64,000 nt of DNA from Acholeplasmatales bacterium (GTDB lineage: Bacteria; Bacillota_I; Bacilli_A; Acholeplasmatales; Anaeroplasmataceae): contig JAILEP010000043.1 in NCBI GenBank assembly GCA_024697825.1, forward strand, positions 9,176 through 73,175. The letters run 5' to 3'. The position numbers were made by a program, and so were the translations under genes. Below the pieces are notes generated by a model. That model saw nothing but the letters and a program-made list of their open reading frames with translations, was not told where the DNA came from and ran no database searches. Of this stretch, positions 1,230 to 35,074 are shown piece by piece. The number at the start of each line of letters is the position of its first letter. The first letter of the stretch is position 1.

Positions 1230-1255
1230 AAAAAGAGGCAAAATTTGCCTCTTTT
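1230..1255 (-). terminator. Intrinsic terminator of the lipoprotein pair
   Basis: aaaagaggca-aaatt-tgcctctttt hairpin with A/T tracts, just past the stop at 1263. Confidence 0.75.
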
Positions 1256-1262
1256 AGCTTTT

Positions 1263-4200
1263 TTACTTCATGTCTGGTCTCTTCCAAGTAGAGAAGTTTG
1301 CTTCATCTACCCAAGATGCATAATCAGATTCATCATCATAGCCAATTACTAGCTGTGCATAATAATTCTTTTCTGCAGAAATAATTGAAGAATCAACAGT
1401 AGTATCATTAATCTGAATATTTAAATAAGTGATTAATAGATAGTTCTGGAAGTTAGCAGAAGTGTATGTAGAAATAATATCTGAATACATGCTGCTAATT
1501 AATGTTGAAATAGAAGAGTCAAGTGAAGATGACTGACCCATCTTTGTCTGACAGTAGTAAATGAAGAACTGGTTGAATGAAATTTCATCAGTTGCAGTAT
1601 TATAAGAATCCATAGTGATATAGATATTGTTATCATCGTCCTCTGAATCCTCGTAAACTAATACATCAATATTAGCCTGAACACTAGAAGGGTCATCACT
1701 TTCAGTGAAGTCTGTAGCCTCTGGTTCAGAATAGCTATTTAATACGATTAAATGGTAACCGAATGATGTCTTACATAAATTGCTTGCTGTAATATCATCA
1801 ACACTAGAAACTACTTTACCAGTTTCTGTACCATCATCAGCCTTGTTATATACATAGAATGTACCATATTCGAATTCGTCATCGACATTGTTTGCAACAC
1901 AAGTTTCATACATACCGATAACATAATCCTTGAATGGCTCAACGAAGCTTGATACTGAATCCTGGTCAATGTCAGAAGATGATGCAAGCTGTTCAACTGT
2001 TAATAAGAAGTTGAATGTCTTATAATCATCCCAAGACTTTGTAGAATCTGAGAATAATTTTTCACCTAAATCATACTGGTCCTTGATATATGTAAGGATT
2101 TCATATGTAGTCTTAGTTGATGCATAATTAGCTCTAATATATTCAGCCTCTGTATAAATAGCCTTAGCTAAAGCCTCTACAGCTGCCTCATATTCAGCCT
2201 CAGTAACTGTATCATTATTCTTTAAGAAATCATCTGGATCATCTGGAGAGCCATCACCATCATCATCAATGTTGATTAGGATGTGGTCAATGTTAATATT
2301 GAATAAATCTGCGTACTTTTCATTACCAAGAGTAAGCATACTATATAATGCACCAGAAGTTGCTAAAGAAGAATCATAAGTATAAGTACCATCACCATCT
2401 TCATCAACTGCCCATTCGCTAAATACAGACTGTGCTAAATAAGTAGTCTGAGCTGCAGCTGCATCATAATAATACTTTAATACCTCTTCCTTAGTTGAAT
2501 AGCCATAAGCTAATAATAAGAAATTAGATACACCAAGCTTCTTTGAATAAGATGAATTATCACCGCTCTTGAAGTTATCAATTGCATCAGATAATGTATC
2601 CTCATTATCATCATGAGCATCCTCATCAATGTAATTTAATGTAACATATTCATCATACTTAGTATATGCATATTCTAATGAGAAGTAGCTATAAATTGTA
2701 GAAGAACCATTTGCAAGAGTTGCATCATTATAGAAATCCTCTACAGAATAAGTATATGTATAATCATCGCTAACCTTAATAGAGAAGATAGCTGAATTAT
2801 CAAAATACTTCTTATTAATTAATTCATATTCAGAATAAGAATTCTGGAACTTATATTCGAAGAATGGATCATAGATATAAATATCATCTGATGTATCATC
2901 GTTATTAGAACGAGTATAAATCATTTCATTGAAATCAGTATTTACATATGAATTTCTAGAACTCATTAATGTATCATACTTAATTCTTGTAGTATAAGTG
3001 GCATATAAATCAGGATTAGATTCCTCTAAATCATCCCAATCAGTTTCTTCATTTGTTCCACTGATATCAAATGTAGTATCAAAACGAATAGCCATAACGT
3101 ACTTATTGTCGATATTTCTAGGCTCTGTTAAATACTGCTTAGTAATATCCCAATCAGCTTCGTTATCAACGTTTTCTTCAAGAGTTGAAGTAACTAAAGT
3201 CTTAATTGAATCAGATAAATCACTGAATTCATTTTCATCCTTGCTGACAGTATATGTAAATACATCATTTGTCTTAGCTGTAGTTGCATCAACTGCTTTA
3301 TACTGATAATAATCATTATATAAGCTTACATAAGCAGCGATAGCCTCATCAATTGAAGTAGCAGACTCAAGCTGTGTAGCATAAGCATTGTAATATCTGT
3401 TTGCAATCTTTAAAGAATCAAACTGAATAATGATTGCATGGTAAGTACCATATGTCTTATAAGTTGAATCATAAGCTGTTTCTAAGTAATCTCCATCCTC
3501 ATCATAGATATAGTTAGAGTTCTTAGTTAAATCATCATCCTCATCGTCATCATAATTGTGGATGTATTCCTCATCTGCGATATCATATAAAGCATTCTGA
3601 GCTGATAAATAGCTTGCCTGAGTAAGTAATACATCATCAACCATCTTTTCAAAAACATCTGAATCGATATTCTTAATTACAACAGTATGTAGATTATCAC
3701 TTGATTCCTCATAAGCTAAATCAGAAATTGTGAATGTCTGACCAATTCTAGCACGAGCAGTAATAAATGTTTTCTGCTTTGTTAAAATTTCATCAGATTC
3801 ATAATCATCTAGTGTTTCATAATCAGATGTACCATAAATAGAAGTTGAAACAGAAGACATAACAGTCTTTCTTAATTCATTTCTAATATAGTCATAGTTT
3901 GTTACAGTAGAATCATCGCTTAAATCATGACCACCTAGCTCAAATAAAGCAACTCCATCCTTTGTAGGAACAAGCATTGCCTGCTGAGCTGAAGTAAGAT
4001 TTGTGTAGTCTGCATTTTCAAATACAGCCTTATAAGTTTGATATTCTTCATAATATAATGCTTCCTTAATCTTATTAGTAACTAAGGTAGTACTATTAAA
4101 ACGAAGTCTATTGTAGTACATTTCTGTACTCATAGATAGCTCTCCGTCTAATGCAGTTGCATAGACAGAGGACATATCTAAATTACCTGTTGGAGTATCT

Positions 4201-4289
4201 GTGTTTCTTGTGTTACTTCCACAAGATGCTAAAGTTAATGCTGTTAAAGCAGTAAGAGTAGCGCCTAATAAAACTTTTTTAATCTTCAT
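1263..4289 (-). CDS. Large acidic lipoprotein with PrsA/parvulin-like foldase modules (lipoprotein A, about 1008 aa)
   Basis: Start moved to ATG 4289 (RBS aaggagag). MKIKK…LTLASC signal peptide/lipobox. Parvulin-like NIDHILINI and KTSFGYHLIVL. DxDxDG loops. Very D/E/Y/T/S-rich. Confidence 0.7.
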   Translation of the reverse strand: MKIKKVLLGATLTALTALTLASCGSNTRNTDTPTGNLDMSSVYATALDGELSMSTEMYYNRLRFNSTTLVTNKIKEALYYEEYQTYKAVFENADYTNLTSAQQAMLVPTKDGVALFELGGHDLSDDSTVTNYDYIRNELRKTVMSSVSTSIYGTSDYETLDDYESDEILTKQKTFITARARIGQTFTISDLAYEESSDNLHTVVIKNIDSDVFEKMVDDVLLTQASYLSAQNALYDIADEEYIHNYDDDEDDDLTKNSNYIYDEDGDYLETAYDSTYKTYGTYHAIIIQFDSLKIANRYYNAYATQLESATSIDEAIAAYVSLYNDYYQYKAVDATTAKTNDVFTYTVSKDENEFSDLSDSIKTLVTSTLEENVDNEADWDITKQYLTEPRNIDNKYVMAIRFDTTFDISGTNEETDWDDLEESNPDLYATYTTRIKYDTLMSSRNSYVNTDFNEMIYTRSNNDDTSDDIYIYDPFFEYKFQNSYSEYELINKKYFDNSAIFSIKVSDDYTYTYSVEDFYNDATLANGSSTIYSYFSLEYAYTKYDEYVTLNYIDEDAHDDNEDTLSDAIDNFKSGDNSSYSKKLGVSNFLLLAYGYSTKEEVLKYYYDAAAAQTTYLAQSVFSEWAVDEDGDGTYTYDSSLATSGALYSMLTLGNEKYADLFNINIDHILINIDDDGDGSPDDPDDFLKNNDTVTEAEYEAAVEALAKAIYTEAEYIRANYASTKTTYEILTYIKDQYDLGEKLFSDSTKSWDDYKTFNFLLTVEQLASSSDIDQDSVSSFVEPFKDYVIGMYETCVANNVDDEFEYGTFYVYNKADDGTETGKVVSSVDDITASNLCKTSFGYHLIVLNSYSEPEATDFTESDDPSSVQANIDVLVYEDSEDDDNNIYITMDSYNTATDEISFNQFFIYYCQTKMGQSSSLDSSISTLISSMYSDIISTYTSANFQNYLLITYLNIQINDTTVDSSIISAEKNYYAQLVIGYDDESDYASWVDEANFSTWKRPDMK

Positions 4290-4290
4290 A

Positions 4291-7200
4291 TTATTCGCTC
4301 TCCTTTTCATCATCATTTAATAAGAATTCATCAACGATCTGTGCGATCTTTGCCCACCAGTCAACAGTATTACCGTTGTCATCAACATAAGTATAAGGAT
4401 CAGATGTACCAGTGATGTCATCGTAAATATCATTGTAATTATCAGCAATTCTCTGGTTGATTTCAATAATCTTAGCGAATGCACCATCTGCACCATTGTA
4501 ATCCTCATTTGCAAACTTGATTACATCATATAATGCTGTAGAAGAATCTAGGCCAGCTCTATTTCTAATAAAGCTTAATAAGATAATTCTCTGAGTTTCA
4601 CTACCTGTAAATCTTGATACAGCGTCTGCTAAGAATGCTGTATAAGCATCAGATAATGATGAAGGAGCTAATGTTGAAGAACCATTTAAAGCATAATCAA
4701 TGATATAAAGCTTAATCTGGTTTTCATTTAACTGATCTTCACTATTGTAAATATTATCAATTACAACATCGCCATCATTATACTTGAAGTAGATGTTTTC
4801 TAAAATGTTCTCATCATGATCATCCTCAGTCCATTCAGCAGAAGCCTTAGTAGTACCTGAAGTGATTACTAATAAATTGTATCCATCGTCAGACTTAACG
4901 ATATCAGTATTGTTTGCGTCAGTGTCAACTGAAGAATCAGTTAATACTTCCATATAGCTTGTAGGAGTAGTTTCGTTAATGAAATACTGATAAATCTTAG
5001 TCTTAGTTACACCATCATCAGCTAAGCTATAGCCACGAGCGTAATCATAAATTCTCTGCTTAATATTGAAATCAATATCAACAGTTGAGTTTGTAGCTGA
5101 AACATCCTCAGTCTTTACATTGAAACCTAAATGTAAGTACTTAGCCCATCTGTTTTCTGCAACGATTGGGTTAGTTTCGAATTCTGCCTTTGCAGAACCC
5201 TGGATTTCAGTAACTAATGCAGAAATTCTATCTGTATGAGAAGAAGTTGATGCTGCAACTAGCTTATAAATATCATAAACCATTGACTTAGCAACCTCTG
5301 CTCTAGTCTTACCATAGAATTCACTATTAGTATCTGTAATTGTTACATCATACCAATCTTCAACATCATCAGCCTCACCATCATCGTTACCATCGAAGTA
5401 AACAACTAATCTAGTACCTGATAAAGAGAAGTAGTTTTCATAAGCTAAATCAGAATATGTCTTGAAGAAGCTTACTAAATCATCGCTTGAATAATCTGTT
5501 AATAAATTAACTGATGCATAATTAACACGGTAATAATTATCAATAATCTCAGAAATCTTTGATGTATGGAAATATAACATTAAGAAGTTATACTTACCAA
5601 TTGATGAATCATAACCACTTGAAGCATAGCTACCATTAGAGAATGAATATAGAATTGCTTCAATATAATCCTCATAATCGCTTCTATCCTTATTTGTATC
5701 CTTATATGCCTGAGTAGTCTTAATAATCTTCTTAGATAATAAATCTACTGCAGTAGTAGAGCCTGAAGTCTGCTCTAGGTAATCATAAACACCAAATACT
5801 GTATCAGTACCAGGAATCTTAATTGCCTTAGAATCAGTGATGCCCTCACCAGAAATTAATAGCTTATAAGTTGTACCATCATACTTGATAGTAGCTAAAA
5901 CATTGTTATCACTTGAGCTCTTTAAAGTCTTAGAATAATCAGAATTTGCAGTTAGGTATGCAATTTCACATGCCTCATTGTAAATTTTAACCTTTACATC
6001 ATCTAGCTCTTCAGATAAATAATCAGAAATAACTGAATCAGTAATTCTTTCTTCAATTAGATTTCTTTCTAGATAATCCTTTAAATTGTTTTCAGTAATA
6101 TAGCTTAAAATTTCATAATCAGATAAGTCTGAAGAATAGAAATCTAAATGCTTCTGTAATGTTTCATAATCATCACCATTGTCTTCAGCATTTAGCTTTT
6201 CCTCACCAAACTTGAATGCGATATAATAACCACCATTTACAGAAGTAGTAGAAGTTGAATATCTATCACTTGCAGTTTCATGGTCTAATGTAGAATAAAT
6301 TAATGTCTTTAATGAGTTACCAATATCATTTAATTCATCTGGAGAATACATTGTTCTTGTATCTGCATCCTCAGCAGTATAAGTAGTATCACTTAATGCT
6401 GCAACTGCAGTGTTATACTTTGTAGTTGCGTCAGAAGAATAATCCTCGATAACCTCATTTGTTAAGAATCTTAACTTATCTAGACCTAATTCAGTAACTT
6501 CCTTACCATCAACCTTGTATGGACCATTGCCAGTTACGAACTTAGTTCTATATCCACCATAAACATAATTATATATTAATGTATAAATTTCAAGTACTGC
6601 ATCATTATCTACTGTGTAAACATCATAGTCTGGTGTGTACTGAGTAGTAGATAGGTTATCATAATAATCAATATATTCATCATATGTATAACCCATGTTA
6701 TCAGCAATATAATATAATCTCTTGTTATAGAACTTTAAACCGAAGGCTCTTAAAGTGTTTTCGAATTCTTCAGTTGATGTAAACTTGATTAATACAGTGT
6801 CAACCTTCTGTAAATCTGTATATTCACTCTTAAACTGAGTGATATATTCAGATGTTGAGAAGTAACCCCACATATCGTCATCTTCATCATCATCGTCTTC
6901 GTTTGCCTCTTCAACCTCTTCAGTTTTTAAAGCTAAGGCCATTAACTCTTTTGCATAATTAAAGTAATAAACCTGTCTTAAAACGTCGTCTGTTGCGACA
7001 GAAAGATAATTGTCATAATTATCCTCAATGTCTATGTTATTAGCTGTTACTGCAACTAATTCAGCTAATTCCTTTTCACCAACCTTATCAACCTGATAAG
7101 TTGTGTACATTTCATCAATATACTTTTCCTCAAGTGTTCTTTGATTAGATTCGTCTAAAGACTCATAGTCCTCATAGTAATCTTCCATACTGAAGGAGAA

Positions 7201-7599
7201 GTTATATACATCCTGAACTACATAATCAACTAGTCTATCACTATATGTACTATATAGGTCCTTGTACTCTTCTTCAGTACTAATTCCTAGATCCTCCTTG
7301 TCATCATCAGATAGAGCACTATAATCATTATCCATTACATTGGTAAGATTATTAATGTACTTCTGAAGAATTACAACATTGATCTGATTGTCTAAAACAT
7401 CCTTACTTGACCACTGAAGTTCATCCCATAGCTCGCCAACAGTGATGTTGAAATCACTGCTACCAGCAGTAGCATAAACGTCATTCTTGTTAAGATTGCC
7501 ATAGGTGTTTGTTGCACCTGAGCAGGATGCTAAGCCTATCACGAACGCAGAAGCCATGGCTGCAGTGCATGTTCTACGTGCAAATTTACTCTTACTCAT
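4291..7599 (-). CDS. Large acidic lipoprotein, paralog of lipoprotein A, degenerate PrsA/parvulin-like (lipoprotein B, 1102 aa)
   Basis: MSKSK…VIGLASC lipobox. Colinear with lipoprotein A (YF.L/DGNDDG/KSDDGYNLLVI/SETQRIILLSF vs SANFQNYLLITY). RBS aaaggag upstream. Confidence 0.65.
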   Translation of the reverse strand: MSKSKFARRTCTAAMASAFVIGLASCSGATNTYGNLNKNDVYATAGSSDFNITVGELWDELQWSSKDVLDNQINVVILQKYINNLTNVMDNDYSALSDDDKEDLGISTEEEYKDLYSTYSDRLVDYVVQDVYNFSFSMEDYYEDYESLDESNQRTLEEKYIDEMYTTYQVDKVGEKELAELVAVTANNIDIEDNYDNYLSVATDDVLRQVYYFNYAKELMALALKTEEVEEANEDDDDEDDDMWGYFSTSEYITQFKSEYTDLQKVDTVLIKFTSTEEFENTLRAFGLKFYNKRLYYIADNMGYTYDEYIDYYDNLSTTQYTPDYDVYTVDNDAVLEIYTLIYNYVYGGYRTKFVTGNGPYKVDGKEVTELGLDKLRFLTNEVIEDYSSDATTKYNTAVAALSDTTYTAEDADTRTMYSPDELNDIGNSLKTLIYSTLDHETASDRYSTSTTSVNGGYYIAFKFGEEKLNAEDNGDDYETLQKHLDFYSSDLSDYEILSYITENNLKDYLERNLIEERITDSVISDYLSEELDDVKVKIYNEACEIAYLTANSDYSKTLKSSSDNNVLATIKYDGTTYKLLISGEGITDSKAIKIPGTDTVFGVYDYLEQTSGSTTAVDLLSKKIIKTTQAYKDTNKDRSDYEDYIEAILYSFSNGSYASSGYDSSIGKYNFLMLYFHTSKISEIIDNYYRVNYASVNLLTDYSSDDLVSFFKTYSDLAYENYFSLSGTRLVVYFDGNDDGEADDVEDWYDVTITDTNSEFYGKTRAEVAKSMVYDIYKLVAASTSSHTDRISALVTEIQGSAKAEFETNPIVAENRWAKYLHLGFNVKTEDVSATNSTVDIDFNIKQRIYDYARGYSLADDGVTKTKIYQYFINETTPTSYMEVLTDSSVDTDANNTDIVKSDDGYNLLVITSGTTKASAEWTEDDHDENILENIYFKYNDGDVVIDNIYNSEDQLNENQIKLYIIDYALNGSSTLAPSSLSDAYTAFLADAVSRFTGSETQRIILLSFIRNRAGLDSSTALYDVIKFANEDYNGADGAFAKIIEINQRIADNYNDIYDDITGTSDPYTYVDDNGNTVDWWAKIAQIVDEFLLNDDEKESE

Positions 7600-7728
7600 C
7601 GATAATACTCCTTTAATTTAAATTTATGCACATATTATCATAACATTATTAAATATAAAAAGCAAACAAAAACAAAATTTAAATTTATGGGAAATTTTGG
7701 ACGTTTTTTTGGTATGTTATATCTTTTA

Positions 7729-9256: not shown

Positions 9257-10756
9257 GTGACACAAGTAAAAGACTTACCTTTAATTCAAGAGGTAGAAAA
9301 GACAGTAAAGAGACCTGTAAAGATTTTACAGTTTGGTGAAGGAAATTTCCTTCGTGCATTCATTGATTGGATTATCAATTCAGCTAACAAGGCTGGTTCA
9401 TTCGATGGTGGCGTTGCAATCGTTCAGCCAATTGCTCAGTTCGGTAGAGCAAAGGAATTAGCTGATGCTAATTGCTTATACACATTATACTTACAGGGTT
9501 TACAGGATGGTAAGGCAGTAAGACAGCATGAGGTAATCAAGACTGTTCAGGATGCTTTCAATCCATATACAGATTATGAAAAGTTCTTAGCATATGCTGT
9601 ATCTGATGATTTACAGTGTGTTATTTCTAACACAACTGAGGCTGGTATCGCATTCGATCCAACTGATACAAATTTCTCTAAGACTCCAAATTCTTATCCA
9701 GGTAAGCTATTAGCTTTATTAAAGGCTAGATATGAAGCTGGTAAGAAGGGTATCTTCATCGTTCCATGTGAGTTAATTGACCACAATGGTGAAACATTAA
9801 AGGAAGTAATGGTTAAGCTAGCTAAGCACAATAACTTTGATGCTAAGTTCATTAACTATGTTGAAAATGAAAACATGTATTTCAATACATTAGTAGATAG
9901 AATTGTTCCAGGTTATCCAAGAGACAACGCTGAGCAGTTCCAGTTAGATTTAGGCTACCAGGATCAGAACATGGTTGTTGGTGAAATCTTCCACTTATGG
10001 TGTATTGATGCTCAGACAGTTGCTGACCAGAAGGTTGCTAAGGCTAATCTTGAAGCTTTAAAGAAGTTCTTAGGTACTGAAGCTGCTGGCTTAAATGTAT
10101 TATTCGTAGATTCAATCGTTCCTTACAAGCAGAGAAAGGTTAAGATTCTTAACGGTTCTCATACTACATTAGTTCCAGTTTCTTATTTAGCTGGTATCGA
10201 TGCAGTTAAGGAAACTATTGAAGATCCACAGTTAGGTAAGTTCGTTAAGGAATTCATCTTCGACGAAGTTATCCCTACAATTGACATTCCAAGAGATCAG
10301 ATGGAAGCATATTCTAATTCAGTATTAGAAAGATATATGAACCCATATGTTCATCATTTATTAATGTCAATCGCATTAAACTCTTCAACTAAGTATAAGG
10401 AAAGAGTATTACCTTCTGTATTACAGAACATCCAGAACCTAAATACTTTACCTAAGCATGCATTATTCTCATTAGCTGCTTTAATGGTATTCTATAGAGG
10501 TACTAGATTATCTGATAATGCACAGATTGCTATCCAGGATACTAACCAGCCATTCTTAGATTTAATCAACGGCTTATGGGCTCAGTATGATAAGGATAAG
10601 AATGCTAACGCATTAGTAACTGCAGTGCTAGGATATAAGGCTCACTGGGGTGTTGACTTAAATGAATTCGATGATGTTAACGAATATGTTACTGCATCAT
10701 TAGAAGCAATCTTAGCTAAGGGCATTAGAGAAGCAATTAAGGAAATTGTTGATTAA
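9257..10756 (+). CDS. uxaB: Tagaturonate reductase (altronate oxidoreductase)
   Basis: ILQFGEGNFLRAF, SNTTEAGI, PCELI, TLVDRIVPGYP, KVKILNGSHT. GTG start behind ggaggt. Confidence 0.95.
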   Translation: MTQVKDLPLIQEVEKTVKRPVKILQFGEGNFLRAFIDWIINSANKAGSFDGGVAIVQPIAQFGRAKELADANCLYTLYLQGLQDGKAVRQHEVIKTVQDAFNPYTDYEKFLAYAVSDDLQCVISNTTEAGIAFDPTDTNFSKTPNSYPGKLLALLKARYEAGKKGIFIVPCELIDHNGETLKEVMVKLAKHNNFDAKFINYVENENMYFNTLVDRIVPGYPRDNAEQFQLDLGYQDQNMVVGEIFHLWCIDAQTVADQKVAKANLEALKKFLGTEAAGLNVLFVDSIVPYKQRKVKILNGSHTTLVPVSYLAGIDAVKETIEDPQLGKFVKEFIFDEVIPTIDIPRDQMEAYSNSVLERYMNPYVHHLLMSIALNSSTKYKERVLPSVLQNIQNLNTLPKHALFSLAALMVFYRGTRLSDNAQIAIQDTNQPFLDLINGLWAQYDKDKNANALVTAVLGYKAHWGVDLNEFDDVNEYVTASLEAILAKGIREAIKEIVD

Positions 10757-10810
10757 TTTTGAGTAAATAATAAAAAACATAAGAAAATATTGTTAGGATA
10801 GGTGATTAAA

Positions 10811-12298
10811 ATGAAGGATTATATCATTATTAACCCGCTTGATAATGTTGCCGTATGTCTTCGTGAGCATAAAGCTGGCGAAGTTATTGAAGGGGTTACA
10901 TTATTACAGGCTGTTCCAAGAGCACACAAGGTTGCTCTAAGAGACATCAAAAAAGGAGAAAACATCATAAAGTATGGCTGCCCAATCGGTCATGCAACTG
11001 CTGACATTGTAACAGGTGAATGGGTACATACTCATAATGTTGCTACAAACCTTGATGATGTAATCACCTATAAGTATGAACCTGAATATCCACCAGTACT
11101 AGGTTATAAGGATACTAAGAGAACTGTTGACGTTTATGAGCGTAAGAACGGTCAGTATGGTGTAAGAAATGAGCTTTGGATTGTCCAGACTGTTGGATGT
11201 ATCTCTGGTAATGCTCATAGAATTATTCAGGAATTTAAGAAGAGACATGATGCATCAGATATCGATGGTGTATTTACATTCAATCATCCATTTGGCTGTA
11301 GCCAGATGGGTGGTGACCTTGACATGACTCGTACAATCTTGACTGATATGACTATCCATCCAAATGCTGGTGGTGTATTAGTATTGGGTTTAGGTTGCGA
11401 GGAAAACCAGATGCCTAAGTTCATTGAAACTTTAGAAAAGCTTGGTTATGACAAGGAAAGAACTAGATTCTTAGTTTCTCAGGAAACAGAAGATGAAATT
11501 GAAGACGGTGTTAAGCTATTAGAAGAGCTTTATGAGAAGATGAGGTACGATAAGCGTGTCACACGTCCTCTATCTGTATTAAAGATTGGTCTTAAGTGTG
11601 GTGGTTCTGATGGTATGTCAGGTATCACTGCGAACCCATTACTTGGTAGACTTTCTGACTTCTTATCAATTAATGGCGCTACAACTTGTTTAGGTGAAGT
11701 ACCTGAAATGTTCGGTGCTGAGCAGCTATTAATGGCTCGTGCTAAGGACCAGGCAACTTTCGACGAGATTGTAAAGCTTATCAACGATTTCAAGATTTAT
11801 TTTAAGAATCATCATCAGGTTATTTATGATAACCCATCTCCAGGTAATAAGGCTGGAGGTATCACAACTCTAGAGGATAAGTCTCTTGGATGTACACAAA
11901 AGGGTGGTGCATCTAAGGTTAATGGTGTTATTGAAATGGGTGGTTTAATCAAGGAAAAGGGATTAAATCTAATTTCTACTCCAGGTAATGACCTATGTGC
12001 TTGTACAACATTAGCTGCAGCAGGCGTACAGATGGTATTATTCACAACTGGTAGAGGTACACCATTCGGAACATTCGTTCCTACAATGAAGATTGCAACT
12101 AATACAGATCTTGCAACAAAGAAGTCTAACTGGATTGATTACAATGCAGGCGACCTTGTTGATAAGAAGGATATGGATCAGTTACTTGAGGACTTCATTG
12201 ATTTAGTTTGCGATGTTGCATCAGGCAAGAAGCAGGCTAAGAATGAACAGAATGAATTCAGAGAAATTTCTATCTTCAAAGATGGAGTTATGTTATAA
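10811..12298 (+). CDS. uxaA: Altronate dehydratase
   Basis: N-terminal SAF domain (HKVAL…KYG.PIG…HTHN), HPFGCSQ, GLKCGGSDG, NPSPGNKAGGITTLEDKSLG, FTTGRGTP. Confidence 0.95.
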   Translation: MKDYIIINPLDNVAVCLREHKAGEVIEGVTLLQAVPRAHKVALRDIKKGENIIKYGCPIGHATADIVTGEWVHTHNVATNLDDVITYKYEPEYPPVLGYKDTKRTVDVYERKNGQYGVRNELWIVQTVGCISGNAHRIIQEFKKRHDASDIDGVFTFNHPFGCSQMGGDLDMTRTILTDMTIHPNAGGVLVLGLGCEENQMPKFIETLEKLGYDKERTRFLVSQETEDEIEDGVKLLEELYEKMRYDKRVTRPLSVLKIGLKCGGSDGMSGITANPLLGRLSDFLSINGATTCLGEVPEMFGAEQLLMARAKDQATFDEIVKLINDFKIYFKNHHQVIYDNPSPGNKAGGITTLEDKSLGCTQKGGASKVNGVIEMGGLIKEKGLNLISTPGNDLCACTTLAAAGVQMVLFTTGRGTPFGTFVPTMKIATNTDLATKKSNWIDYNAGDLVDKKDMDQLLEDFIDLVCDVASGKKQAKNEQNEFREISIFKDGVML

Positions 12299-12328
12299 AA
12301 GAAAGTTAAAATAAAAGGAGAATATCAA

Positions 12329-13762
12329 ATGAAAGACTTTATGGATAAGGACTTCTTATTAACTACTGAAACAGCTAAGAAGTTATATCATGAACATGCA
12401 GAAAACATGCCAATTATTGACTATCACTGCCATCTTCAGCCAAAGGAAATCGCTGAAGACAAGAAGTTCCGTAACCTTGCAGAAGCTTGGTTAGGTGCTG
12501 GTGATAGATATGGTGATCACTATAAGTGGAGAGCACTTCGTGCTAGAGGTTATCAGGAAGATTCTATTTCTGGTAATATCCCTGGTAAGTCACTTGAGGA
12601 ATCTGATTATCAGAAGTATTTACAGTTCTGCGAATCTATGCCTTATTTCGTAGGTAACCCACTATATCATTGGTCTCACCTAGAATTAAGAAGATATTTC
12701 GGTATCGATGACATCATCAATGCTGAAAATGCAAAGACAATTTGGGACAAGGCAAACAAGAAGCTTGAAACTTTAACAGCAAGAGAAATGCTTTATAAGT
12801 TCAAGGTTGATACAGTTTGTACAACAGATGACCCAGTTGATGATTTACATTGGCATAAGCAGATGAATGCTGATAAGACTTTAAAGGTTAAGGTTAGACC
12901 TGCATTCCGTCCTGATAAGGCTATTAATGTTGAATTAGATTGGTTCCCTACTTGGGTTAACCAGTTATCTACAGTTGTTGGTTATAAGATTGAATCATTA
13001 AATGATTTAACTAAGGCCTTAGCTGAAAGAATTGATTTCTTCCATTCTATGGGTTCTCGTTTATCTGATCACGCTCTAGATACAGTAAACTACGCTCCAG
13101 CTACATATGATGAGGCTAACGCTGTATTCTTAAAGGGTATGAAGAACGAGCCAGTTTCTATCGAAGAACAGGATAAGTATAAGGGTTATATCTTATTATT
13201 CTTAGGTAAGGAATATACAAAGCATGGCTGGACTCAGCAGTACCATATCGGTGCTTTAAGAAACAACTCTAAGTCTATGCTTAAGAAGATCGGACCAGAT
13301 ACTGGTTTCGATGCAATTGAAGATTCAGTATTTATCGAAAAGTTATCTGCATTACTTGGTGCTTTAGACGCTGCAGATTCTCTTCCTAAGACTATTCTTT
13401 ACAACTTAAATCCACGTGATAACTATGCATTAATGGTATTAGCTGGATGCTTCCAGAAGGAAGGCGTTCAGAACCGTGTTCAGGTTGGTACAGCTTGGTG
13501 GTTCTTAGATCAGCAGGATGGTATGAGACAGAATATGGAAACAATGATGCAGGTTGCTATCATTTCACAGACAGTAGGTATGTTAACTGACTCTCGTTCA
13601 TTCTTAGCATATCCTCGTCATGAATACTATAGACGTTTATTATGTCAGATGTTAGGTAACTTAGTTGAATCTGGTCAGTATCCAGCTTCTGAATTACCTA
13701 GACTTGGACAGATTGTAGAAGATATCTGCTACAATAACGCTAAGAAGTATTTCGGATTCTAA
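12329..13762 (+). CDS. uxaC: Glucuronate/galacturonate isomerase
   Basis: PIIDYHCHL, GDHYKWR, CTTDDP, WWFLDQ, GMLTDSRSFLAYPRHEYYRR. Confidence 0.97.
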   Translation: MKDFMDKDFLLTTETAKKLYHEHAENMPIIDYHCHLQPKEIAEDKKFRNLAEAWLGAGDRYGDHYKWRALRARGYQEDSISGNIPGKSLEESDYQKYLQFCESMPYFVGNPLYHWSHLELRRYFGIDDIINAENAKTIWDKANKKLETLTAREMLYKFKVDTVCTTDDPVDDLHWHKQMNADKTLKVKVRPAFRPDKAINVELDWFPTWVNQLSTVVGYKIESLNDLTKALAERIDFFHSMGSRLSDHALDTVNYAPATYDEANAVFLKGMKNEPVSIEEQDKYKGYILLFLGKEYTKHGWTQQYHIGALRNNSKSMLKKIGPDTGFDAIEDSVFIEKLSALLGALDAADSLPKTILYNLNPRDNYALMVLAGCFQKEGVQNRVQVGTAWWFLDQQDGMRQNMETMMQVAIISQTVGMLTDSRSFLAYPRHEYYRRLLCQMLGNLVESGQYPASELPRLGQIVEDICYNNAKKYFGF

Positions 13763-30510: not shown

Positions 30511-30539
30511 TTGACTATATATTTCTAAATTGGTAAAAT
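30511..30539 (+). promoter_or_regulatory. Sigma-A promoter of the SNF2/Zn-finger/adhesin operon
   Basis: TTGACT-17 bp-TAAAAT with TGn. It overlaps the TTG at 30530 used by the ORF track, so the real start is likely ATG 30611. Confidence 0.7.
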
Positions 30540-30610
30540 ATTCTTATGGGAAAAGTCGATACAAATTTAAACACAAATGGGAGAGTCTTTTGTGGAAGGG
30601 GCGTATTAAT

Positions 30611-33600
30611 ATGCTTAAGGTCTATAGTGATAACCTTAATCAGATATGTGATTTAATTAAGCAGGTTTTAGGTGTAAAGAATTCATCTAAAATTTCTTTT
30701 AAGCAGCTTAATGATTATTTCGATTCTGATATGGAGGAAAATAAATTAGTTAAGAAGATTTCTGATGTAATAAAGGATAATCCAAAGAAAATCTTACCAG
30801 CTGCCTTATTACTTATGATGGCAGAATCATTTGAATATCTTGTAAAGTATGAGGATAAGTATAATGCAATTAAGAATATGCTTATGAATACTAAGAGCCT
30901 AAATGAGGTAGGCGGAGCTTTAAAGGAGGATATGTGGCCATTTTATCCATTCTTCCAGGAAGCATTAACAGCCTTTGCGACACTTCATAATCCCGAGGTG
31001 TTCTCAGGTCTTGAGGCCGAGGGCTTAGTATTTGAATCATCAGTAAGAGATATTGTATTTTCAGATGCGGAAGGTTATGTTATCCCTATTTCATTTGAGT
31101 CTTTTTTTGATACCCTAACAAGCTTCTTTGATAAGGCTAATAGCATTAAAGAAAAGCTTGTATTAGATGATAAGATTAGCTTCCATGAGATTTCTGATTT
31201 ATTTATAGAATTAAATAATTCATATCAAATTTATACATATGACTTTATGGATAATTATTCAGGCCTTAAGGAATTAGCAGAGGGCTATTATAATGAGGTA
31301 TCTGAAAAGCTTAATGCTATATCTACATCAAGCATCCTACCTGATATCAATGCCTTAGTAAGATATACTAACGATAAGATTAAGGTATTAAGATTTAAGA
31401 TTAAGGATGTTAAGAGATTAGATGATCTAGAGGCAGTTAATGAAGAGGTTAATGATCTTAAGGTTTATGCTGTAACTAGATATAATGAATTCGTTGAATA
31501 TTTCACAAAGAGTGGAATTGATGTTCCTGAGCAATTTAATAAGCTTAGTGAGCTTGTGATTGAAAATCCAGAATCTAATGACAATATTGATTCATTATAC
31601 ACATTAATTGATGAAATGATTAAGGGCTTAGAGGCTAAATACGAAAGAAAGAAGAGAGCCCAGCTAGTTAGAGATTTATCTATTAAGATTAAGAATTTTG
31701 ATGAATTCCTAATTGGTCTTAAAACTGAAATTGGTGATACTTCAGTTATAACTAAGAGAAAGATGGGTAATTTTACATCTAAGGATTTAGCTGAGCTATT
31801 ATTAAAGAGATTAAAGCTTCAGAAGAATGCTTATTTTAAGCGAGTAAGAGTATTCGATTATTTATCAATGGCTATTGATTTAGAGGATACAGGCTTTAAG
31901 ATTTATACACGTCATGAATTTGAAAGAATTGGCGCATCTATTAGAGAGATGGAAAAATTCTTAAATTCAGTTTTAGAAAGCATGTTACCAGAAAAGGATT
32001 CTAAGGAAGAATCCGATTTTGAAAATGAAGGACGTGTAGTAGATATTAATGGCAATAATATTAAGATTGCATTAATGAATGAGGATTTTTCTGAAATCTC
32101 ATTCAATGAAGAAAATAATGGTCATACATTTAATATCCATGATTATTCTGCATATCATAATTTAGTTGATTATGCAGTAGATGTAAGAAGACAGCCAGTC
32201 TTCCAGGATTATGGTGATATTTCTGAATATCCATATTTTAAGCCTTTTAAATATCAGGTTGATTCTGTTAGAACAATGCTACAAAGATTTGAAGGCCGTG
32301 GTGTATTTGGTGACCAGGTTGGTTTAGGTAAAACGTTAGAGGCTTTAATGACTGCCGATGTTATGTTTAGATGTGCAACTATTAAAAATGCGGTAGTTGT
32401 AACGACTAAATCAACTATTAGACAGTGGAGAAGTGAGGCAATGACTAAATTCCGTCACGCTGATGGCTCTCCAATGTTTGAAATTTATCCTAAGCATGAT
32501 TCTTATTCATTTGTAGAATTAATGAATGAGCTTGTTAAGGATAAGGAAACTAAGGATTCTAATGCTTTAAAGCTATATTTAGTTTCAACTGAACAAATAA
32601 AGAGTGAGGAAACTCTTGAATTTATTAAATCAAGTGGTGAATATTTTGGTATTAAGAATGCGGCTTATAATCCAAGCCCAGAGGTACCAACAGATCAGCT
32701 TGTAATCGATACTAAGATGAAGGATATCAATGCCTTAAAGGCTTTGGATATTTTAAAGAAGAGATTACCTAATGAGCTATCAAGAGAAATTAAGAAATCA
32801 CTTGATGCAAATGAAAAATATAAAAAGCTAACTGCATATAATGTATATGGATTCTTTGATTATGAATATGATGAGGCAAAAAAGGCCTTTGTTATAACTA
32901 ATCATCAGCTATATAATCCAAAGAAGCCTACTGAATCTTCAGTTAATGAAGAGGTTAAGATGCTTAAGAAATATACTAAGAAGCTTAACGAGATTGAAGA
33001 AAGAAGACAGGAAATATTAAATACATTAGATGAATTAAAGAAAAAATATTCAATTGCCGATATGAGACTTGTCGATTTATTAATTTTCGATGAGGTTCAG
33101 GATTTATTATATGATTTCAATAATAAGGGTAATAAGGAGCAGCTACTTCAGGAATTTATTGCCAATATTCAAAAGAAGTATTGTGTATTAATTTCTGCAA
33201 CTCCTATTAAGAATGACTTAAGTGATATTTTTAATCTTTTATACATGGTAGATAAGAATAGACTTGGTGAAACTAAGGAAAAGGCTGAGGCTAAATTCTA
33301 TAATGCATATTGTGGTGGGGCTAGATCATTATCAGAAATGGCAGCCTCAAAGGATGCGTCTGAGAAATTTAAAAAGCTTAATGGTCTAATCAATTCAATG
33401 TTTACTAGAAAGAGATTATACGATAAGGATGTAACTGAATCTATTAGACGTCATTCTGCAACTATAGAAGAAATAAATAAGGCAAATGAGCATAATAGAG
33501 ATGATTATGGTGGACAGGCGTTTATGAAGCTTGTTGGGGCAATTAGACGTTCTCCTGATATGCTAAATCCTGATAATGATCCACATACATTCTTAGATAA

Positions 33601-35065
33601 ATATGTTAGACCACTATTCCCTAAATATGATTTACCAGATGAAATTATGTTTGATGCCTTTAAGAAGCTAAGTGAGGCAGTAAATGATTCAGCTAAGATT
33701 TGCTTAAATAGACTTGAATATGAGCTAAGAATGAAGCTCGATGGCTTTAATGTATATGATAAATTTACTGAAAATTATCGTATTGTATTAAAGTATGAAT
33801 CTGAAGGTATTAAGAATGAGGTTTATGAAACTGCAGTTAAAACATGTAATTTATTATGTAGCTATATAAACCGTGGCTTAATGAAATTCTATAAATCATA
33901 TCAGGAATATTCTACAGTATTCCTAAGTGATTATATTGACTGGAGAAGACCTCGTAAGAGAGGTGAAAGAATCAATGTTTCAACTGATCCAGGTAAGCTT
34001 CAGATATTTAAGGATTTACTTGTTGTAAAGGATGGTAAAAATAATCAGTATGATATTAATTCTGATAATATTACAGCCCTTGAAACAGGTAAGGTATTAT
34101 TCTATGAAAAATCTCCAGCCCTAAGAGGAGAAATCTATAGAGCTGTAAGAGATTCTAAGCCTGAATTTGGTAATAATAGAAGATTCTATTTAAATTTATT
34201 CCAGGGCGAGGAAAAGGAATATGAGCTTAAGGATTTCATCCATTTAGGATATTTTCCTAAGGGTGAAAAGAATAAGGAAATGAAGGCTTATATGGCTGAA
34301 ATTTCTAATAAGAATTATGATTCTCTTGGCTATGAGGATAAGAGATTATTAGATACATATACATTAAATGGTACATTAAAGAGAGCAGATACAGAAGAGG
34401 ATACATTTAAGGGTGTTACATTTAAGTGGTTTACTGAATATACATCTGAAAATGAGAATTGGAATGCCGTATATTTTATGGATAGAACAATGCTTGCAGG
34501 TACTGACTTCAATGCCGCAAATGTGCTAGTAATTGGTCAGCTTGATAAGGCTAATGGTGGCTATATGGACCCACTAGAGCTTGAACAGCTAATTGGTCGT
34601 ATTTCAAGAATGGGTCAAACAGAGGAATGTATTGTATTTACATGTCTTTATAATGGCAACAATGAGGAAGAAAACGATAAGGAATTTAATAATGTATATT
34701 ACGATATTATGACTGATGAGGATGGCTTTGATTTATACGGAGTATGTCAGACAGAGGTTGATTTCGTAATGCCAGTAGTTATGGCCTGTGGTAATCGATT
34801 ATTTAGCCTAGAATATTCTTATTCTAAGGATAAAATGGATGGTTTTAATGAGGATACATCTGATTTTAAGGCTATTTATAAGAATGAATATATTCCTTAT
34901 GAAATTAAGAGATTCCCTGATTTAGTAAGATATGCTTATACCAATAAAGACAATATTACCGTTTGTTATAATGGTAATGAATATAATCCTTTAGATGCAT
35001 TAAAGGAAATGATTAGATTATATTCAAAGGTATTAAGACCAGAAAATAAGAAAGTGAAAGAGTAG
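30611..35065 (+). CDS. Large SNF2/RapA(YqhH)-like helicase-fold ATPase (about 1484 aa)
   Basis: Motif I GDQVGLGKT (32309-32335), Ia TTKSTIRQW, II LLIFDEVQ (DEVQ at 33089), III ISATPIKN, VI EQLIGRISRMGQ (Gln at 34586). RBS ggaagggg. Confidence 0.85.
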   Translation: MLKVYSDNLNQICDLIKQVLGVKNSSKISFKQLNDYFDSDMEENKLVKKISDVIKDNPKKILPAALLLMMAESFEYLVKYEDKYNAIKNMLMNTKSLNEVGGALKEDMWPFYPFFQEALTAFATLHNPEVFSGLEAEGLVFESSVRDIVFSDAEGYVIPISFESFFDTLTSFFDKANSIKEKLVLDDKISFHEISDLFIELNNSYQIYTYDFMDNYSGLKELAEGYYNEVSEKLNAISTSSILPDINALVRYTNDKIKVLRFKIKDVKRLDDLEAVNEEVNDLKVYAVTRYNEFVEYFTKSGIDVPEQFNKLSELVIENPESNDNIDSLYTLIDEMIKGLEAKYERKKRAQLVRDLSIKIKNFDEFLIGLKTEIGDTSVITKRKMGNFTSKDLAELLLKRLKLQKNAYFKRVRVFDYLSMAIDLEDTGFKIYTRHEFERIGASIREMEKFLNSVLESMLPEKDSKEESDFENEGRVVDINGNNIKIALMNEDFSEISFNEENNGHTFNIHDYSAYHNLVDYAVDVRRQPVFQDYGDISEYPYFKPFKYQVDSVRTMLQRFEGRGVFGDQVGLGKTLEALMTADVMFRCATIKNAVVVTTKSTIRQWRSEAMTKFRHADGSPMFEIYPKHDSYSFVELMNELVKDKETKDSNALKLYLVSTEQIKSEETLEFIKSSGEYFGIKNAAYNPSPEVPTDQLVIDTKMKDINALKALDILKKRLPNELSREIKKSLDANEKYKKLTAYNVYGFFDYEYDEAKKAFVITNHQLYNPKKPTESSVNEEVKMLKKYTKKLNEIEERRQEILNTLDELKKKYSIADMRLVDLLIFDEVQDLLYDFNNKGNKEQLLQEFIANIQKKYCVLISATPIKNDLSDIFNLLYMVDKNRLGETKEKAEAKFYNAYCGGARSLSEMAASKDASEKFKKLNGLINSMFTRKRLYDKDVTESIRRHSATIEEINKANEHNRDDYGGQAFMKLVGAIRRSPDMLNPDNDPHTFLDKYVRPLFPKYDLPDEIMFDAFKKLSEAVNDSAKICLNRLEYELRMKLDGFNVYDKFTENYRIVLKYESEGIKNEVYETAVKTCNLLCSYINRGLMKFYKSYQEYSTVFLSDYIDWRRPRKRGERINVSTDPGKLQIFKDLLVVKDGKNNQYDINSDNITALETGKVLFYEKSPALRGEIYRAVRDSKPEFGNNRRFYLNLFQGEEKEYELKDFIHLGYFPKGEKNKEMKAYMAEISNKNYDSLGYEDKRLLDTYTLNGTLKRADTEEDTFKGVTFKWFTEYTSENENWNAVYFMDRTMLAGTDFNAANVLVIGQLDKANGGYMDPLELEQLIGRISRMGQTEECIVFTCLYNGNNEEENDKEFNNVYYDIMTDEDGFDLYGVCQTEVDFVMPVVMACGNRLFSLEYSYSKDKMDGFNEDTSDFKAIYKNEYIPYEIKRFPDLVRYAYTNKDNITVCYNGNEYNPLDALKEMIRLYSKVLRPENKKVKE

Positions 35066-35074
35066 GTGATTCCT

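Follow-up and report, generated by a model that had tools for sequence, protein, structure and literature searches.

The 64,000-nucleotide stretch of contig JAILEP010000043.1 analyzed here (GCA_024697825.1, Acholeplasmatales bacterium), hereafter the window, whose numbering is used throughout, contains two adjacent genes, B and A, that encode giant lipoproteins with sequence signals of PrsA and of parvulins. The reading that we favor, and regard as probable rather than secure, is that A and B are paired single-chain double-PrsA lipoproteins that act as chaperones for proteins emerging from Sec, with A as a prolyl isomerase, B as its partner or holdase and a hetero-oligomeric cage as their probable assembly. 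A system of this kind has already been described in Mycoplasma; what is new here is the family, the lineage, the operon form and the placement of the active site.

Both genes lie on the minus strand, with the following layout.

4291..7599, minus: gene B, from the list of open reading frames (ORFs); a 1102-residue lipoprotein and the upstream member of the pair
1263..4289, minus: gene A, a 1008-residue lipoprotein and the downstream member, with its ATG at 4289
7608..7613, minus: ribosome-binding site AAGGAG of gene B, read from the sequence
4300..4305, minus: ribosome-binding site AAGGAG of gene A, inside the 3' end of gene B, read from the sequence
1231..1255, minus: terminator-like hairpin right after the gene A stop, from a pattern scan (11-pair stem followed by a T run)
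7522..7599, minus: signal peptide and lipobox LASC of B, with Cys26 invariant in 58 sequences
4221..4289, minus: signal peptide and lipobox LASC of A, with Cys23 invariant in 42 sequences

The ORF list gives gene A as 1263..4316 (1017 residues). We re-set the start to the ATG at 4289 because the A-family consensus opens MKxKK, with M1 and K2 invariant, and because AAGGAG at 4300-4305 lies 10 nucleotides ahead of this ATG. Gene B ends in a TAA stop (4293-4291), leaving a single base (4290) before the start of gene A. A preliminary description of this DNA had reported two LASC lipoproteins of about 1008 and 1102 residues, one base apart, and the ORFs, the lipobox cysteines and base 4290 bear it out. 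The position of the gene A ribosome-binding site within gene B suggests translational coupling, and judging from the sequence the two genes probably form a translationally coupled operon. The hairpin is two-sided and common to gene A and the convergent tex gene. Similar to PrsA, both proteins begin with a lipoprotein signal that contains a lipobox cysteine. A 102-residue ORF antisense inside gene A (2998-3306, plus strand) is most likely spurious.

The two proteins are paralogous along their whole length. Although a direct BLASTP comparison of A with B is weak (21% identity, E 1e-5), hhalign of the A-family profile against the B-family profile gives a probability of 99.9% and E 3.1e-36 over 830 aligned columns, so that the two chains, proposed earlier to be colinear, are full-length colinear paralogues. 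The family alignments hold 42 sequences for A, 58 for B and 47 for a more distant clade that takes in single-copy Acholeplasma proteins (its profile is named A3 in searches); the superfamily alignment holds 147. AlphaFold2 (AF2) run on the family alignments gives models with a mean predicted local distance difference test score (pLDDT) of 88.8 and a predicted template modeling score (pTM) of 0.83 for A, and 87.8 and 0.82 for B. The segments of the two chains are as follows.

4029..4163, minus: A unit 1 head (residues 43-87, VYATA...MSTEMYYNRL), a PrsA N-terminal-like strand and helix; profile E 5.6e-4, AF2 strands 42-54 and helix from 55
3069..3449, minus: A unit 1 alpha/beta domain (281-407, YHAIIIQF...KYVMAIRF), AF2 secondary-structure order β-α3-β-α-β, without catalytic histidines; putative parvulin-like fold
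2844..3011, minus: A unit 1 tail (427-482, a long helix and IYIYDPFFEYKF), PrsA C-terminal-like; profile E 3.2e-4
2586..2789, minus: A unit 2 head (501-568), a second PrsA N-terminal-like segment; profile E 8.1e-5, AF2 strands 500-515
1728..2300, minus: A unit 2 parvulin domain (664-854), matched by the parvulin profile, with invariant H669, E766, G844 and H846; AF2 order β-α3-β-α-β2
2226..2267, minus: A acidic DxDxDG-type loop DDDGDGSPDDPDDF (675-688), an insertion after the first strand of the unit 2 parvulin domain
1284..1577, minus: A unit 2 C-terminal helical tail (905-1002), AF2 helices, with a weak PrsA C-terminal signal (distant clade E 0.037)
7330..7479, minus: B unit 1 head (41-90, VYATA...ITVGELWDELQW), paired with the A head in the hhalign comparison; a helix follows AF2 strands 41-53
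6202..6804, minus: B unit 1 alpha/beta domain with helical insertions (266-466, VDTVLIKF...GGYYIAFKF), from AF2; homologous to the A unit 1 domain (E 9e-7), no histidines
5911..6087, minus: B unit 1 tail (505-563, including VKIYNEACE), colinear with the A tail; weak match to a Listeria PrsA1 C-terminal fragment (E 0.05)
5638..5901, minus: B unit 2 head (567-654), AF2 hairpin 567-581 followed by helices; homologous to the A unit 2 head (E 3.7e-4)
4855..5427, minus: B unit 2 parvulin-like domain (725-915, GTRLVVYF...DDGYNLLVI), homologous to the A parvulin domain (E 4.8e-10), with Arg730 and Asn908 at the histidine positions

The resemblance to PrsA is carried by three profiles, compared by hhalign with reference sequences taken from PDB search output; the E-values are those of single comparisons. 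The PrsA N-terminal profile, built from three Bacillus PrsAs chosen independently of the A/B family, matches the superfamily at A 501-568 (E 8.1e-5) and at A 43-87 (E 5.6e-4), with the third-best match at 0.12. It also finds both unit starts in the distant clade (E 3.9e-6 and 1.6e-3), and it falls at E 0.014 and 0.062 on A alone and at 0.09, in the right place, on B alone. The two sites coincide with an AF2 β-hairpin followed by a helix, and correspond to the VYATA...E.(Y/W)..L motif and its second copy. The PrsA C-terminal profile, built from four PrsAs, matches A 427-482 with E 3.2e-4 and the distant clade with E 1.3e-4, pairing ANIKVKDxxFxDxF with the closing IYIYDPFFEYKF of A unit 1 (which includes IYIYDPFFE); a weak second match falls in the unit 2 tail (E 0.037, distant clade). 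Finally, the parvulin profile, made of Par10, two archaeal parvulins and the parvulin domains of B. anthracis and B. subtilis PrsA (five sequences), matches the unit 2 alpha/beta domain of A with E 1.3e-4 in the A family and 4e-5 in the superfamily. From end to end it also aligns with the distant-clade profile (E 5e-4), SHILV being paired with SHLLxY and FGYHIIK with FGWHxIL. Column shuffling (120 shuffles) yields a maximum score of 15.4, versus 31.9 observed for the parvulin match.

An hmmsearch of the PDB with the distant-clade profile points the same way, as Listeria PrsA1 (full-length and parvulin domain) and human Par14 together account for five of its seven matches at E<=10. A single PrsA1 chain aligns in three parts, its N-terminal part with the unit 2 head, its parvulin domain with the unit 2 domain and its C-terminal part with the unit 1 tail. 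The best match of this profile, ahead of PrsA1, is Ttg2D/MlaC (4fcz_B, E 0.0057). It covers profile positions 482-554, which are the helices of the unit 2 head, and we judged it a helical chance match. The profile matches support a reading of each chain as a lipobox followed by a PrsA-like unit 1 (N-terminal segment, helices, alpha/beta domain and C-terminal segment) and a PrsA-like unit 2.

The catalytic positions are preserved most clearly in unit 2 of A, for which a HIL...GYH parvulin domain had been proposed. This is supported: besides the profile match, H669, H846, D668, E766 and G844 are each found in 42/42 A-family sequences, and T764 in 39/42. The distant clade retains the first histidine in 40/47 sequences, the second in 43/47 and a glutamate at the E766 position in 42/47. 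By sequence position, T764-x-E766 of A may correspond to the Ser-x-Asp of PrsA. A parvulin domain with both catalytic histidines occurs only in unit 2 of A, and neither in unit 2 of B nor in either unit 1 domain. The B family instead has R730 (51/58), N908 (57/58) and G906 (57/58) at the unit 2 site, a pattern of conservation that marks the site as changed but constrained, not decayed. Pin1 reportedly tolerates asparagine in place of the second histidine (cited in 10.1101/2024.09.05.611430). Arginine at the first coexists with activity in Mdp444 of M. pneumoniae (10.1101/2025.04.25.650208), and R730 of B echoes R234 of that protein.

The predicted order of elements is alike in each unit: a β-hairpin, a helical region, a β-α3-β-α-β2 domain and a helical tail. 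From this order, and from the position of the unit 1 alpha/beta domains between PrsA N-terminal-like and C-terminal-like segments, and for these two reasons only, we infer that the unit 1 domains are also parvulin-like. All of the motifs on which the preliminary description relied are present in A and B, located on AF2-predicted strands and helices. The internal two-fold repeat that it deduced from them stands in so far as the PrsA N-terminal profile matches both unit starts and the element order is alike, but direct comparison of the units is weak. The best unit 1 versus unit 2 result in the superfamily aligns heads with heads, in register, at E 0.0055, and a mismatched pair reaches E 0.014.

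Acidic inserts had also been noted, and they are found as DDDEDDD at A 246-252 and DDDGDGSPDDPDD at A 675-687, with matching stretches in B. The second of these belongs to the loop after the first strand of the unit 2 parvulin domain, in which D675, G680, D683 and P685 are invariant in the A family. The loop occurs across the superfamily, with D736, D740 and D744 as its equivalents in B (residues 736-749, window 5353-5394) and further equivalents in the distant clade, whereas canonical PrsA has nothing like it. Lying beside the catalytic histidine, the DxDxDG loop looks like a calcium-binding loop, and from this motif it may bind calcium.

Fold comparison was made with Foldseek, using the whole-chain AF2 models against 350,542 PDB chains. 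For A, M. pneumoniae Mpn444 (9gn0) ranks first (E 0.083, template modeling (TM) score 0.11) and S. mutans PrsA second (E 0.13); the H. pylori SurA-like peptidyl-prolyl isomerase (PPIase) HP0175 follows (E 0.63), with SurA and PEB4/Cj1289 lower. For B, S. pneumoniae PrsA ranks first (E 0.16), Mpn444 third (E 2.2) and LIC12922 fourth, with PpiD lower. The PrsA matches have a probability of ~0.5 and a target-normalized TM-score of 0.27-0.30. Because PrsA/Mpn444-type families are small within the PDB, their repeated top ranks are unlikely to have arisen by chance, an argument from rank among predicted models rather than from a significant score. Seven maltose-binding protein (MBP) fusion chains in the list for A, at probability 0.01, led us to consider a substrate-binding protein, a reading that we rejected. 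We ascribe these chains to over-representation in the PDB; none appears in the list for B, and no transporter genes adjoin the pair.

Several results weigh against a double-PrsA architecture. The comparison with PrsA structures places PrsA, SurA-like proteins and Mpn444 at the top of both lists, but whole-chain Foldseek yields no significant match for A or B (best E 0.083, TM-scores 0.1-0.4). Unit 1 compared with unit 2 within the halves of A or B by hhalign gives E 0.05-0.8, which is not significant. The parvulin profile has no signal in the unit 1 alpha/beta domains or in the B unit 2 domain alone (E 0.08-0.4; for the A unit 1 domain, 0.24-0.36), and in the unit 1 domains of all groups the histidine positions are not conserved and the catalytic residues are missing. 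The hhalign probabilities of the PrsA and parvulin matches, at 30-87%, are not overwhelming. Pfam and NCBIfam return nothing relevant for A and B, Pfam on the 42 A-family members gives scattered noise with no Rotamase, and phmmer or hmmsearch of the PDB with A, B and their family profiles finds no meaningful match. The Dcp2, ApoE and Cif chains that these PDB searches returned (E 0.02-0.7) were judged chance. The expected Pfam models, Rotamase and SurA_N, have no match at threshold in A, B, the 42 A-family or the 47 distant members, but among the distant members no other Pfam families recur as often as SurA_N_2 and SurA_N_3 (7 and 5 members, all subthreshold), and the SurA_N_3 match in the relative P0201 lies at the start of unit 2. 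For the operon itself, no RNA sequencing runs containing the sequence were found, the matching runs being gut-metagenome DNA only.

Taken against these points, the tandem-fused PrsA proposal of the preliminary description is probably correct in the main and demonstrated in part: the N-terminal, C-terminal and parvulin profile matches, which fall at the expected places (E 4e-6 to 6e-4), support it, but the unit 1 and B unit 2 domains give no parvulin signal and Foldseek gives no significant match. One could argue that short motifs match by chance in large, compositionally biased proteins whose fold is unrelated to PrsA: individual E-values are modest (1e-3 to 4e-6), no Pfam match exceeds threshold and all Foldseek E-values are at least 0.08. 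We consider this highly improbable, given that three independent PrsA-derived profiles match in the right order at AF2-predicted boundaries, that the column-shuffle nulls stay far under the observed score, and that PrsA-family chains are at the top of the two Foldseek lists and of the PDB hmmsearch.

A has 44 and B 69 cluster-level homologues (identity 30-60%), all from Anaeroplasma or Acholeplasmatales gut and rumen genomes, called 'hypothetical' wherever they are named and none with a precomputed Pfam domain. When 1.8 billion representatives were searched with a profile, 275 proteins matched at E<=1e-3. Among the best 150 of these 275 matches, nearly all full-length superfamily members have a lipobox near residue 23-30, and the more distant ones belong to Acholeplasma and Haploplasma. 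A third homologue search, with the distant-clade alignment as query, returned 24 close Acholeplasma relatives only and reached no other lineages. Four of the 47 distant members (P0219, P0235, P0251 and one more; ~1170-1210 residues) carry an extra C-terminal Bact_surface_Ig-like domain (DUF5011, best E 8e-11); the carriers are on the Acholeplasma side and the domain is absent from the window proteins.

The genomic position of the pair is conserved. In A. bactoclasticum and one distant relative, the pair is flanked on one side by divergent genes for a metallo-β-lactamase (MBL)-fold hydrolase and RlmH, and on the other by tex, or by genes for HD, pullulanase and the CCA-adding enzyme. The window has matching MBL and RlmH neighbors and tex. 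A scan of one genome per GTDB species gives 79 loci, from A. bactoclasticum or gut and rumen metagenome-assembled genomes; most are labeled Anaeroplasmataceae or Acholeplasmatales, and the few with other labels we took as mislabels. Of 84 loci in all, B is directly followed by A in 77, five are cut by contig ends and two, from Acholeplasma, have a single gene. Thus every uncut Anaeroplasmataceae locus (77/77) has B then A with one-base or overlapping spacing, whereas both separately retrieved Acholeplasma loci have a single gene in the same MBL-RlmH slot. This distribution indicates that one double-PrsA gene was duplicated in tandem to give the pair, after which A retained the His/His site and that of B was altered.

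Both the housekeeping neighborhood and the constant copy number speak for a core function and against a variable surface antigen. They also bear on whether a PrsA-like scaffold has been reused here for surface lipoproteins of a gut commensal, serving in peptide or ligand binding, adhesion or immune evasion rather than as general foldases. The lack of a significant structural match for A or B, the large insertions and acidic loops not present in PrsA, and the three of four alpha/beta domains without parvulin histidines would suit such a role. We nonetheless think it improbable, since the genes occupy a conserved housekeeping slot as one gene or one B-A pair without variable-antigen features, and the parvulin residues are invariant over 42 diverged sequences. 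Moreover, Pfam finds no transporter or adhesin domains in A, B, the 42 A-family or the 47 distant members, except the immunoglobulin (Ig)-like domain in 4/47 of the last.

A dedicated role in folding a 3176-residue adhesin of the window, suggested in the preliminary description, receives no support, because the position of the pair is conserved regardless of such genes. That protein (Flg_new/MBG/YDG, 37177-46707) is encoded ~30 kb from the pair. It is the last of three abutting plus-strand ORFs (30530-46707), after a 1511-residue SNF2/ResIII protein and a 703-residue protein without a Pfam match; successive ORFs meet or overlap at their start and stop codons (35065/35066 and 37177/37177), which oddly puts a helicase-like protein together with a giant surface protein. 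A 4451-residue Flg_new-repeat protein is also encoded ~5 kb downstream of the single-copy gene of Acholeplasma sp. GCA_030266845.1 (L084 17807-21582), which may be a coincidence or a recurring neighborhood of giant secreted proteins. Elsewhere in the window, 9257-13762 is a hexuronate utilization cluster with a Mannitol_dh-type reductase, an altronate dehydratase-like protein (SAF/GD_AH) and UxaC, its domain assignments being carried over from the same-position genes of a relative locus (L003).

Among known systems, PrsA itself (B. subtilis 4wo7, L. monocytogenes PrsA1 5htf, B. anthracis 6vj4/6vj6, S. pneumoniae 5tvl) shares with A/B the N-terminal lipobox and extracellular location, an N-terminal strand and helix motif of the xVAxxxGxxITxxELYxxLK type, a parvulin domain with SH(I/L)L and FGYH, and a C-terminal helix with an (I/V)x(I/V)xDxxF strand. 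PrsA is ~290 residues long and dimerizes, whereas A/B have two units fused in a single chain of >1000 residues. They also have large helical and acidic insertions, a parvulin domain of ~190 residues compared with ~90 in PrsA, and, unlike PrsA, no histidines in three of their four parvulin-like domains. SurA-type chaperones contain either a single parvulin domain or a pair, of which one may lack activity (SurA P1). SurA, PpiD, PEB4, HP0175 and LIC12922 resemble A/B in combining a helical chaperone module with one or more parvulin domains, as reflected in the weak Foldseek and, in relatives, subthreshold SurA_N matches. However, in SurA two parvulin domains are inserted in a single chaperone module, which does not amount to two complete units, and SurA is soluble in the periplasm and PpiD anchored by a transmembrane helix, whereas A/B are lipoproteins of a wall-less cell.

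The closest parallel is provided by MPN436, MPN444 and MPN489, the 'major dome proteins' (Mdps) of M. pneumoniae, which are giant essential lipoproteins, ~20% identical mutually (Jensen et al., 10.1101/2025.04.25.650208). In each, a unit made of a SurA/PrsA-like helical domain and, after it, a PPIC (parvulin) domain is duplicated within the chain. Together they form a heterotrimeric dome over SecYEG-SecDF, and crosslinking showed the paralogues in a heteromer (10.1101/2025.04.25.650208). Searches by sequence and by fold were unsuccessful with the full-length Mdps, and matches were obtained from excised domains only; Mdp444 alone keeps catalytic residues, with Arg replacing the first histidine. 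Their hhblits matches were confined to Mycoplasmoidaceae, and the system was called 'uniquely present in Mycoplasmas' (10.1101/2025.04.25.650208). Structures of Mpn444 and Mpn436 have been solved, PPIase activity and binding of unfolded protein measured, and Mpn444 found to form homotrimers in vitro (Keles et al., 10.1101/2024.09.05.611430).

By analogy, a mechanism can be proposed for the double-PrsA pair. B and A would be anchored by their N-terminal lipidated cysteines on the external membrane surface of a wall-less cell. Each chain would be a single-chain tandem of two PrsA-like units that mimics the PrsA homodimer, a unit running from an N-terminal strand with helices through an alpha/beta domain of the parvulin type to a C-terminal tail of helix and strand. 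A and B may then chaperone proteins leaving the Sec translocon, with A giving prolyl isomerase activity through the predicted unit 2 site (H669, E766 and H846) and B, with its diverged but conserved Arg/Asn site, acting mainly as a partner or holdase. Co-translation from one mRNA would favor an A-B hetero-oligomer that receives unfolded chains from Sec, and the two proteins probably come together as a hetero-oligomeric cage for folding, comparable to the Mdp436/444/489 dome.

An alternative is that A and B, although derived from PrsA, are independent, acting as separate homo-oligomers or monomers on different clients, with no A-B cage or fixed association with Sec; the tandem duplicates would then have specialized on their own clients. 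The single-copy Acholeplasma proteins function without a paralogue, Mpn444 homotrimerizes, and the conserved Arg/Asn site of B, together with the activity of Mdp444 despite its Arg, means that B could be an enzyme itself. On the other hand, strict co-occurrence of B and A with one-base or overlapping spacing at 77/77 loci suggests stoichiometric co-expression, and the M. pneumoniae paralogues do crosslink with each other. We therefore hold independence to be unlikely, although it is the alternative that we take most seriously, and we keep to a paired system.

The likeness of A/B to the Mdps (MG307/MG309/MG338 family; PDB 9gn0) is one of architecture. Both sets are giant (~1000-1300 residues) lipoproteins of wall-less bacteria, each chain with an internally duplicated unit of a SurA/PrsA-like helical and a parvulin domain (the PPIC fold of unit 1 in A/B being the predicted one). 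Both are sets of diverged paralogues (~20% identity) in which one alone keeps canonical catalytic residues, and full-length sequence and fold searches fail in both. The architecture that had been proposed for A and B on the strength of their sequence is therefore one already published, for another protein family in another lineage. In sequence, the A1, A2 and A3 profiles do not retrieve Mpn444 (9gn0) from the PDB at E<=10. An alignment of the C-terminal half of Mdp444, rough because it was read with errors from the supplement by optical character recognition, gives E 0.3-0.6 against the A/B-family profiles, and no PrsA or parvulin signal in the same test. Since that alignment lacks a PrsA/parvulin signal, the A/B family is, as far as these profiles tell, closer in sequence to PrsA than is the C-terminal half of Mdp444. 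Neither A nor B has a Pfam match at threshold that would place it in the Mdp family (IPR022186), including the Mycoplasma DUF; judged by sequence they are Mdp-like in architecture, yet cannot be filed as members of the Mdp family.

Other differences concern genes, loops and active site. The Mdps are encoded by three dispersed genes, whereas A/B form a two-paralogue operon (one gene in Acholeplasma), and A/B have few disordered loops (pLDDT ~88), unlike the Mdps. In A the C-terminal unit carries the conserved site (His/His), and in Mdp444 the N-terminal unit does. The Mdps form a complex at Sec, whereas for A/B such a complex is proposed by analogy.

It is possible, though we lean slightly against it as a general statement, that double-PrsA lipoproteins are not peculiar to Mycoplasma but are the general extracellular folding machine of wall-less Mollicutes. 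In Acholeplasmatales this machine would be a single gene in Acholeplasma, duplicated in Anaeroplasmataceae into a catalytic A and an Arg/Asn B, and would form a Sec-associated cage like the dome of M. pneumoniae. Its internal duplication would then either go back to an ancestor common to the Mdps, the active site having been retained in opposite units, or have evolved independently after the wall was lost. In any case, an unannotated family without a Pfam domain (275 cluster representatives, loci in 79 species-level genomes) now has a proposed architecture, from which several hundred 'hypothetical proteins' could gain annotation. A design published as restricted to Mycoplasmoidaceae appears also in Acholeplasmatales, the other deep wall-less lineage. 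It thus becomes possible to test whether wall loss leads in general to a folding cage at the translocon, whether the internal duplication is ancient or convergent, and how paralogues split catalytic and structural roles. Because of its recognizable PrsA signals and few disordered loops, the A/B family may connect PrsA with the Mdps better and lend itself more readily to structural work.

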